Shown here: one piece after another, positions 19,544-48,900 of the stretch | How the letters are laid out: each line of letters opens with the position of its first letter | Numbering within the stretch: position 1 is the stretch's first letter | Assembly: GCA_038245195.1 (NCBI GenBank) | Contig: JBBRSU010000005.1 | Coordinates: forward strand, 1 to 52,251 | From: Candidatus Saccharimonadales bacterium | Lineage (GTDB): Bacteria > Patescibacteriota > Saccharimonadia > Saccharimonadales > UBA10212 | Reading direction: 5' to 3' | DNA length: 52,251 nucleotides | Program-made: the position numbers and the translations under genes | The notes under the pieces: model-generated | What the model saw: only the letters and a program-made list of their open reading frames with translations | Databases searched by the model: none | Told to the model about the DNA's origin: nothing

Positions 19544-19834
19544 ATGACAAAAAAACTATACGTAGGTGGCTTGGCTTACAGCGTCACCGAGCAGGAATTA
19601 GAAACATTATTCGCCGAAATTGGCAAAGTTACTAGTACGGCCGTTATAAAAGACCGCGATACTGGCCAATCAAAAGGCTTTGGTTTCGTGGAAATGGAAG
19701 ATGATGCAGCTGCCGAAAAGGCTATCAAAGAGCTGAATGGTAAAGAACTCAGCGGCCGTTCTATCATGGTCAACGAAGCTCGTCCGCAAGAAGACCGACG
19801 TTCCGGCGGTGGTGGACAACACCGATCATACTAA
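19544..19834 (+). CDS. RRM-domain RNA-binding protein
   Basis: RNP2 LYVGGL, RNP1 KGFGFVEM, Gly-rich tail. Confidence 0.95.
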   Translation: MTKKLYVGGLAYSVTEQELETLFAEIGKVTSTAVIKDRDTGQSKGFGFVEMEDDAAAEKAIKELNGKELSGRSIMVNEARPQEDRRSGGGGQHRSY

Positions 19835-43867: not shown

Positions 43868-43944
43868 TGGTGGAGACACGGGGACTCGAACCCCGGACCT
43901 CCTGCATGCCATGCAGGCGCTCTAGCCAACTGAGCTATATCCCC
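43868..43944 (-). tRNA. tRNA-Ala(GGC)
   Basis: GGGGATATAGCTCAGTTGG...CCTGC-ATGGCAT-GCAGG...GGTTCGAGTCC...TCTCCACCA; G3:U70 pair. Confidence 0.95.
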
Positions 43945-44479: not shown

Positions 44480-45115
44480 ATGGTTAATAAATCCGATGAG
44501 CCAAGAATTAGACATATCTTTAAAAATTTTTGGCTTGCGGCCAGCCTGGGTTTTGTTTTGGGAGTTTTGGTAGTGCTTGTTGTCAGATTCTCTACCTACA
44601 AAGTCCCGAGCACTCATTATCACGCTAATTTCGCGGTTTTCATTAACGGTCAACAGCAGTTGTTTAAGGACGATTTTTATTACCAGGAGGTAGGTGCTGC
44701 TTGCACTGCCCAAGCCAACATCACTCCACACGACCGGGCTCACATGCACGAGCATGAAGCTGGTTTAGTACATGTTCACGATAACGCGGTAACTTGGGGT
44801 CAGTTTTTCCAGAATATTGGCTGGGATATTAACCCCTTCTTTGTTAAAACTCCAACTCAAGTATTGTTAGCTGATGATACGCATAAAGTTACATTTTTGG
44901 TCAACGGCCAAGTGGTTCCAAATATTGAAACCCAGGTAATTGGTGACCGCGATAAGCTTCTGGTTGATTATGGCGATGAATCACCAAATACGCTGCAGAC
45001 TGAAACAAAATCTATTCCCTCAACAGCCGCCAAGGAAGATGTCACCCAAGACCCGGCCAGCTGTAGTGGCAGTACTCCGACCACCTTTCACGACCGTATC
45101 ACACACTTGTTTTAG
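44480..45115 (+). CDS. Membrane-anchored His-rich hypothetical protein
   Basis: One N-terminal TM helix; HYHANF, HDRAHMHEHE, HVHD; two Cys. Confidence 0.75.
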   Translation: MVNKSDEPRIRHIFKNFWLAASLGFVLGVLVVLVVRFSTYKVPSTHYHANFAVFINGQQQLFKDDFYYQEVGAACTAQANITPHDRAHMHEHEAGLVHVHDNAVTWGQFFQNIGWDINPFFVKTPTQVLLADDTHKVTFLVNGQVVPNIETQVIGDRDKLLVDYGDESPNTLQTETKSIPSTAAKEDVTQDPASCSGSTPTTFHDRITHLF

Positions 45116-45131
45116 TATAATCACTTATTAA

Positions 45132-45207
45132 GGGGCTGTAGCTCACCTGGTAGAGCGCGGCATTCGCATTGCCGAGGTAAGGAGTTCGAGTCTCCTCAGC
45201 TCCACCA
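45132..45207 (+). tRNA. tRNA-Ala(CGC)
   Basis: GGGGCTGTAGCTCA...CGGCA-TTCGCAT-TGCCG...GTTCGAGTC...CTCCACCA; TATAAT at 45116-45121. Confidence 0.95.
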
Positions 45208-45209
45208 TC

Positions 45210-45239
45210 AAAAAAACTCGTCGGTTTGACGAGTTTTTT
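45210..45239. terminator. Bidirectional intrinsic terminator
   Basis: AAAAAACTCGTC-GGTTT-GACGAGTTTTTT perfect inverted repeat giving a T-tract on either strand. Confidence 0.85.
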
Positions 45240-45243
45240 ACTT

Positions 45244-45362
45244 CTTCGCACAGCCCACCCGTGGGCCCGGGTACTTGCTTTTATTTTCGAGGCCAAAATT
45301 ATTTGGACCTTAACCTCTTGGGTGTTTATTTTGCTTGTATGCGCGAGCCCTGGTGCGCGAAG
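45244..45362 (-). ncRNA. Candidate structured ncRNA with a 6S RNA-like rod fold
   Basis: Hand-folded closing stems, A-rich central bubble and apical stem. G:U pairs favour the minus strand. TTGACA lies upstream and a terminator downstream. Confidence 0.5.
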
Positions 45363-45380
45363 CTTAACTACATTACACGC

Positions 45381-48900
<3,520 letters not shown>

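Follow-up and report, generated by a model that had tools for sequence, protein, structure and literature searches.

A single-copy structured RNA family of the order Saccharimonadales predicted from covarying helices and a near-invariant internal loop

A short gap between a Ham1/rdgB-like gene and a convergent tRNA-Ala(CGC) gene in the genome of a Candidatus Saccharimonadales bacterium (GenBank assembly GCA_038245195.1, contig JBBRSU010000005.1, positions 1 to 52,251; this entire 52,251-nucleotide [nt] stretch is referred to as the window) raises the question of whether the gap encodes an RNA and, if so, of what kind. The initial annotation had suggested either a compact, divergent 6S RNA or a new class of small RNA (sRNA) in a genome of the Candidate Phyla Radiation (CPR). 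The small RNA gene at positions 45365 to 45206 on the minus strand is named the G-loop RNA here, and coordinates are window positions. Comparison with related genomes indicates that the G-loop RNA is a single-copy structured RNA family of the CPR order Saccharimonadales that was previously uncatalogued, and that it is probably not a 6S RNA. We favor, with moderate confidence, the interpretation that it is a genuine, independently transcribed, structured sRNA gene of an uncatalogued family, which would act in trans through purine-rich platforms rather than as an open-promoter mimic.

The gene can be read as a promoter, two helices (P1 and P2) separated by an internal loop, an A-rich region interrupted by a hairpin, and a terminator. 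Its parts in the window are the following.

45395 to 45400, minus strand: -35 hexamer TTGACA, inside the final codons of the Ham1/rdgB-like gene
45381 to 45383, minus strand: rdgB stop codon, within the promoter spacer
45372 to 45377, minus strand: -10 hexamer TGTAAT, after a 17-nt spacer from the -35 hexamer
45364 to 45366, minus strand: predicted transcription start, placed by promoter geometry 6 to 8 nt past the -10 hexamer and 2 to 4 nt ahead of P1
45354 to 45362, minus strand: 5' strand of P1, CUUCGCGCA, pairing with 45244 to 45252
45351 to 45353, minus strand: CCA, on the 5' side of the internal loop, a segment whose length and sequence differ among family members
45344 to 45350, minus strand: 5' strand of P2, GGGCUCG, pairing with 45263 to 45269
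45318 to 45336, minus strand: first A-rich motif, which contains AAAAUAAACA and forms the 5' strand of a "bubble" in the clade of the window
45289 to 45317, minus strand: clade-specific apical hairpin, with GAGGUUAAGG (45317 to 45308), a 9-nt loop, and UUUUGGCCUC (45298 to 45289)
45275 to 45288, minus strand: second A-rich motif, GAAAAUAAAAGCAA, the 3' strand of the "bubble"
45263 to 45269, minus strand: 3' strand of P2, CGGGCCC, pairing with 45344 to 45350
45253 to 45260, minus strand: G-motif, GGGUGGGC, the 3' side of the internal loop between P2 and P1
45244 to 45252, minus strand: 3' strand of P1, UGUGCGAAG, pairing with 45354 to 45362
45210 to 45239, both strands: bidirectional intrinsic terminator, a 12-bp hairpin flanked by A and U runs, common to the convergent tRNA-Ala(CGC) gene

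Much of this layout agrees with what the initial annotation had described. Read on the minus strand, the P1 pairing (45362 to 45354 with 45252 to 45244) and the GGGCUCG/CGGGCCC pairing of P2 (45350 to 45344 with 45269 to 45263) are present, as are the A-rich strands that lie opposite each other and the apical stem beyond them. A small UAC/GUA pairing that had been drawn with these helices was not recovered by any prediction, including RNAalifold. The TTGACA-17-TGTAAT promoter was read upstream of P1, and the bidirectional terminator, with its 12-bp hairpin and U run, closes the unit, giving a predicted transcript of about 160 nt with the terminator. Neither signal came out of the consensus scans. 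The promoter scan, which demands A at the second position of the -10 hexamer where this promoter has G, listed no promoter here, and the terminator scan did not list the G-loop RNA terminator either.

A DNA search of 61 related genomes returned many matches, most of them to tRNA, and two blocks from the gap that recur across many genera of the family. The first block comprises the promoter and the 5' sides of P1 and P2, and the second comprises the 3' side of P2, the G-motif, and the 3' side of P1; the middle differs. Three models were used for wider searches: R1, which consists of P1 only; R2, seeded from four sequences (alignment A4); and R3, a covariance model rebuilt from Infernal alignments (A7) that includes P1 with 8 bp, P2 with 6 bp, and 2 bp more. 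The MAFFT alignments A1, A2, and A3 misplace P2, and alignments A5 and A6, which include reverse-strand or N-containing rows, were unused.

R1 matched 25 of 151 genomes of the order, with distant copies consisting of short hairpins. With R3, one copy was found in 98 of the 151 same-order genomes, spread over 82 of 121 genera, and a weak second match was seen in one genome; the 98 include one unpublished genome (G068), on which no other claim rests. The window copy itself scored 30.5 bits (E = 2.8e-4). The distribution appears to be confined to the order: in a sample of the class, R3 matched 31 of 45 same-order genomes versus none of 105 genomes from other orders, and in a sample of the phylum it matched 7 of 151 genomes, 6 of which were either the genome of the window or same-order genomes. 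The seventh phylum match (G320) lacks the G-motif and is attributed to chance. A second R2 match in one genome (L056; G109:C19) was considered as a paralogue and rejected, because the same 3' half is repeated across a run of N, most likely a scaffolding artifact or assembly gap.

The part of the RNA that is shared across the family is smaller than the window copy. The core matched by R3 ranges from 67 to 132 nt over 50 loci (median, 79 nt), with minimal forms of 67 to 85 nt. This conserved core of about 70 to 80 nt consists of P1, the internal loop with GGGUGGGC, P2, and an A-rich loop of 25 to 45 nt that carries motifs of the AAAAYAAAC type. The G-motif is exact in 45 of the 50 loci, and the opposite, 5' side of the internal loop varies freely. 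Signals for independent transcription accompany the core: of 50 homologous loci, 48 have a suitably placed promoter-like hexamer pair (at least 9 of 12 matches to TTGACA/TATAAT with a spacing of 16 to 18 nt), and 35 have a terminator-like end, formed by a hairpin plus U run or, immediately past P1, by a U run alone. As a separate observation on the promoter, the sequence YAAGC(G/T) just upstream of the -10 hexamer (window 45378 to 45383) is conserved, and it recurs in a similar-looking promoter before a protein-coding gene in another genome (G148:C7, L067), so that it may be a clade-specific promoter element.

Both helices covary. In the 17-sequence alignment, 97.3% of the cells were paired versus 73.0 ± 2.0% in shuffled alignments, 11 of 16 pairs had changed on both sides, and none of 500 shuffles equaled this result. 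In the 53-sequence alignment, 98.0% of the cells were paired versus 79.9% in shuffles, with 10 of 16 pairs changed on both sides. The larger alignment held 136 doubly changed cells versus 40.3 in shuffles (0 of 500), and slid controls paired at 23 to 59%. Four of the eight pairs of P1 and four of the six pairs of P2 had changed on both sides in this set. The pairs are also varied in kind, with UA, CG, and GC at one position of P1 and GC, CG, UA, and AU at positions of P2. The fold is thus conserved in relatives, P1 and P2 both covarying. The ACC next to P2 changes together with its 5' partner (helix 3 in the 53-sequence set). The covariation of ACC with the 5' side of P2 rules out a pairing of this ACC(C) with GGGU, which was also considered; for the same reason the G-motif is not consumed by ACC pairing.

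Single-sequence folding is consistent with a stable RNA. The predicted transcript (45365 to 45206) has a folding energy of -53.1 kcal/mol (z = -4.10), none of 200 shuffles was as stable, and its centroid structure retains P1, the apical stem, and the terminator. Energy does not discriminate between the strands, because both strands of 45244 to 45362 fold similarly well: for this 119-nt core the values are -37.5 kcal/mol (z = -2.04) on the minus strand versus -40.1 kcal/mol (z = -2.14) on the plus strand. The minus strand was assigned because of the conserved promoter and terminator and because G:U pairs recur in relatives. The initial annotation had drawn attention to G:U pairs that become mismatches on the opposite strand, and these wobble pairs do recur in the alignment of 53 homologues. 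A protein-coding reading of the interval was rejected; its open reading frames (ORFs) are not conserved, and the lengths of the interval differ by non-multiples of three.

Is the G-loop RNA a 6S RNA? Under this proposal, the rod with its A-rich central bubble would imitate an open promoter, sequester the sigma-70 holoenzyme, and serve as the template for product RNAs. The resemblance is real in the window and seven close relatives, where an apical stem of 11 bp forms beyond the closing helices and a two-sided A-rich bubble. RNAalifold on these eight sequences (the g1 type) recovered P1, P2, and the 11-bp stem, and 9 of the 32 pairs showed changes in both partners. In this clade the RNA is like 6S RNA (ssrS; RF00013) in being separately promoted and abundant looking, with paired ends, a two-sided bubble, and an apical stem, and a consensus-like promoter is expected of an abundant RNA. 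A canonical 6S RNA was also not found elsewhere in the genome: RF00013 gave no match at E of ≤10 over the whole genome, in a search of low sensitivity whose control was positive in 7 of 14 reference genomes.

The family as a whole does not share this resemblance. The apical stem, which would correspond to the upstream-duplex arm of 6S RNA, occurs only in those eight sequences, as a hairpin inserted between the A-rich motifs. It is absent from the 67- to 85-nt forms and missing in most of the family. Other lineages have unrelated hairpin insertions before or after the A-rich tract, on one side of it only, or have none. Thus, the rod with a bubble is confined to close relatives, the A-rich part of the core being a terminal loop, and a conserved rod of the 6S type, with a closing stem, a central bubble, and a far terminal stem, was not found at the family level. 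6S RNAs are about 150 to 200 nt long; the window transcript would reach this size with its terminator, but the core of the family, with its median of 79 nt, does not. To our knowledge, the near-invariant GGGUGGGC has no counterpart among the features of 6S RNA. Rfam models, including RF00013, gave no 6S match in the region at E of ≤10, where only tRNAs passed the thresholds, and no family matched any of 20 homologous loci at E of ≤1. Subthreshold Rfam matches to AgrB, FinP, FtrA, and Thr_leader were set aside, as they rest on the terminator hairpin or on A-rich tracts. The 6S identity is unsupported because homology, conserved rod, and size all failed, and we regard a compact, divergent 6S RNA as quite unlikely.

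The second suggestion of the initial annotation, a new sRNA class in a CPR genome, has fared better. The gene is unannotated, has its own promoter and terminator, covaries order-wide, and belongs to no catalogued family. A core function is likely for the G-loop RNA, because most of the order has kept it as one copy whose promoter is close to consensus, whose helices covary, and whose 8-nt loop is nearly invariant. Saccharibacteria live as obligate epibionts, and their genomes measure about 0.7 Mb. The family offers a well-defined, easily modeled RNA with a core of about 70 nt in a lineage whose regulation is scarcely known. It is also a concrete target for transcriptome annotation, pull-downs, and genetics in cultured strains. 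There is in addition a caution of method, in that a shape like that of 6S RNA, when seen in one genome, can be an elaboration that a lineage has added to a different RNA. We found no literature that pairs Saccharibacteria with 6S RNA, and none on the G-loop RNA itself in a search that included PMC11665869 and did not cover the supplements of the TM7x transcriptome papers. According to a 2022 preprint (10.1101/2022.03.25.485537), no small RNAs of the Saccharibacteria strain TM7x have been validated.

The position of the gene next to protein-coding genes on the same strand raises the possibility that the structure is a cis element only, a stable 3' untranslated region (UTR) or terminator structure of the ligA/rdgB message with no function of its own. 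The neighboring genes in the window are the following.

45935 to 47953, minus strand: ligA, which precedes the rdgB-like gene
45381 to 45938, minus strand: Ham1/rdgB-like gene (Pfam Ham1p_like)
45132 to 45207: tRNA-Ala(CGC), convergent to the G-loop RNA
43868 to 43944: tRNA-Ala(GGC), also in the window

The loci counted for these neighborhoods come from relatives, so that the counts are not independent. In 44 of 51 loci the G-loop RNA has ligA upstream in the same orientation; in some of them one gene separates the two, either Ham1/rdgB, as in the window, or a gene for a membrane protein. No terminator separates the G-loop RNA from the upstream gene in the window, so read-through transcripts would include it. 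Several features are hard to reconcile with a passive 3' end. Of 50 loci, 48 keep the promoter and most have a separate terminator hairpin past P1, and neither the invariant 8-nt internal-loop motif nor the A-rich motifs are needed for a 3'-end structure. The position of the G-loop RNA is also kept when a different gene is inserted upstream, and the -35 element falls within the final codons of whichever gene precedes it. We therefore consider a cis element without a function of its own to be improbable.

The window provides an example of such an insertion. Ham1/rdgB is a single inserted gene there, and ligA is directly upstream of the G-loop RNA in most lineages. The tail of the Ham1/rdgB protein (window 45381 to 45410, minus strand) is similar to the C-terminal tails of LigA (..FLKLIDKS and the like) in relatives without the insert (L002, L006, and L011). 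It thus appears that the Ham1/rdgB insertion took place in front of the former ligA tail codons, in which the -35 element of the G-loop RNA lies.

A second feature of the neighborhood is tRNA-Ala, with a GGC or CGC anticodon, which lies downstream in 39 of 50 loci and within 200 nt in 24. Of these 24 copies, 14 are on the same strand and 10 are convergent at a fixed 32 to 39 nt, sharing the bidirectional terminator. Where a tRNA gene adjoins the G-loop RNA, it is nearly always one for tRNA-Ala, in one orientation or the other. This arrangement suggests that GGUGGG might pair with the 3' end of tRNA-Ala (UCC-A-CC) to sense, protect, or help process the tRNA, much as RNase P RNA and T-box leaders use loops that bind NCCA. 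In the window, GGUGGG could form an unbroken run of six pairs, including one G:U, with the last acceptor bases plus ACC of the tRNA, but three of the six would need the acceptor stem to be opened. Adjacency among relatives reflects shared ancestry and is not independent evidence, and 11 of the 50 loci lack a tRNA-Ala gene in the surrounding 1.3 kb or so. The G-loop RNA also lacks a specifier-like or elbow-binding element. A tRNA-Ala partner is, in our estimation, unlikely.

Aptamers typically combine conserved loop nucleotides with covarying helices, as the G-loop RNA does, and a terminator directly downstream would suit an orphan riboswitch. The G-loop RNA could then be a ligand-binding aptamer, as a riboswitch or a stand-alone sensor, in which the purines of the internal and A-rich loops form a tertiary pocket. 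However, downstream ORF clusters vary, the neighbor is often a convergent tRNA-Ala gene, and no conserved class of co-oriented downstream genes was found, which leaves nothing to regulate in cis. The A-rich loop is variable in length and accepts large insertions, and no riboswitch family matched. An aptamer appears very unlikely.

Because its size is right and it is a single-copy hairpin with a strong promoter, the G-loop RNA was also weighed as the missing, highly divergent signal recognition particle (SRP) RNA (4.5S) of the lineage. RNase P RNA and transfer-messenger RNA (tmRNA) were located elsewhere in the genome. Neither SRP RNA model (RF00169 or RF01854) matched in the genome of the window, and RF00169 exceeded its cutoff in none of 41 genomes. 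The small bacterial SRP RNA (4.5S; RF00169) is similar in being a single-copy hairpin of about 70 to 115 nt with conserved internal-loop nucleotides and covarying helices. In contrast, the conserved part of the G-loop RNA is near the closing helix, not the tip, a GNRA-capped domain IV is absent, and the RNA models do not match it. The protein side of the particle was not found either. Searches for the Ffh M domain gave nothing in the genome of the window or in 101 genomes of the phylum sample. The search for an SRP-type GTPase (Ffh/FtsY) gave only short P-loop matches in 31 genomes and no ORF with a DTAGR motif; the candidates of GTPase size were Obg, Der, and DnaB. Two published studies (PMC4508563 and PMC8080830) report that SRP is absent in CPR groups. 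With no RNA model match, no Ffh/FtsY, and SRP reported missing in the CPR, the SRP RNA reading was rejected as extremely improbable.

We return to the interpretation that we favor, a trans-acting sRNA. The presentation of a binding platform is proposed because compensatory changes occur in the helices, whereas the two purine-rich single-stranded elements are held constant. In this model, P1 would pair the ends of the RNA, P2 would close the A-rich loop, and the helices would serve only to display the G-motif and the A-rich loop as platforms. The G-motif might bind a C-rich RNA, the A-rich loop might bind a protein, or both, and the RNA might be a decoy, a sponge, or a ribonucleoprotein scaffold. 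It would not be an open-promoter mimic for RNA polymerase.

Known sRNAs offer partial parallels. MicL and DapZ of enterobacteria are 3'-end-overlapping "type I" sRNAs that are Hfq dependent and pair with mRNAs through short seeds. The G-loop RNA resembles them in that its promoter overlaps the final codons of the upstream gene and its terminator is shared, so that it could be both a 3' UTR and an independent transcript; it differs in that its helices are far more constrained and in the apparent lack of Hfq, for which PF17209 gave no match in the genome of the window in a search whose control was positive in 5 of 14. CrcZ of Pseudomonas is an A-rich protein-sponge RNA that titrates Hfq/Crc. Like CrcZ, the G-loop RNA keeps AAnAAnAA-like tracts single stranded, but it has two tracts only and an unrelated near-invariant G-motif, in a genome in which Hfq was not found.

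The best concrete candidate for a partner would be a second RNA of the same genome. This C-loop RNA, of about 270 nt, lies outside the window on the minus strand of genome contig C3 (19769-20039; L109/L110), between pth and dprA (Pfam), and has no Rfam match. It was found in 55 of 61 relatives. In 25 of the 30 loci read, its terminal hairpin (C3, approximately 19775 to 19812) keeps an invariant loop on a covarying stem, and this loop, with the invariant GCCCACCC, is the exact complement of the G-motif. A GGUGGG segment just upstream of the hairpin could form a pseudoknot with the C-rich loop within the C-loop RNA. The two RNAs are alike in order-wide distribution and style and have complementary loops. 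They differ in locus, in the size of the C-loop RNA, and in its conserved loop, which is C-rich rather than G- or A-rich, and R3 detected no homology between them in the genome. In 24 genomes representing one per family (G037 to G060), both RNAs were present in 14, only the G-loop RNA in 2, only the C-loop RNA in 5, and neither in 3, a tally that says nothing about a link between the two. The complementarity of the G-motif and the C-loop is suggestive but unproven as a link between partners.

Several observations weigh against an order-wide, trans-acting RNA of this kind or against its proposed partner. R3 found no copy in 53 of the 151 same-order genomes. At least one of these misses (G047) reflects filter loss, a 141-nt copy having been found with filters off, and nothing was found within 1.5 kb of ligA in four other unmatched genomes. 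The alignments used in the 17- and 53-sequence tests (A7 and A8) were fitted to the model structure, which inflates the pairing counts, but the variety of pair types is hard to explain otherwise. RNAalifold indicates that in the clade of the window CCA (45351 to 45353) may pair with UGG of the G-motif, leaving less of the motif free. The 8-mer complement GCCCACCC occurs at 20 sites in the genome, approximately the chance expectation. Compensatory change is absent, since the C-loop core is unchanged in all five genomes with a substituted G-motif, and with the G-motif and the C-loop both near-invariant, covariation cannot test their pairing. No protein partner was identified for the A-rich loop, Hfq being among the proteins not found.

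A more specific version of the trans-acting model can be put forward tentatively. The two order-wide sRNAs might form an RNA-RNA circuit in which GGGUGGGC docks on the GCCCACCC loop, competes with the GGUGGG of the C-loop RNA, and so switches the activity of that RNA. We consider such a circuit doubtful. If it is real, it would represent a housekeeping sRNA/anti-sRNA pair in bacteria without Hfq and SRP.

Two further observations concern the surroundings of the gene. A 211-amino-acid ORF upstream of tRNA-Ala(CGC) (window 44480 to 45115, plus strand) has no Pfam match at E of ≤0.001 and encodes a hydrophobic N-terminal segment and histidine-rich motifs. Over the whole genome, the hexamer found most often in the 20 nt before the ATG of long ORFs is TATAAT (35 of 446), and AAGGAG occurs in 21, which hints that many mRNAs of this genome are leaderless.

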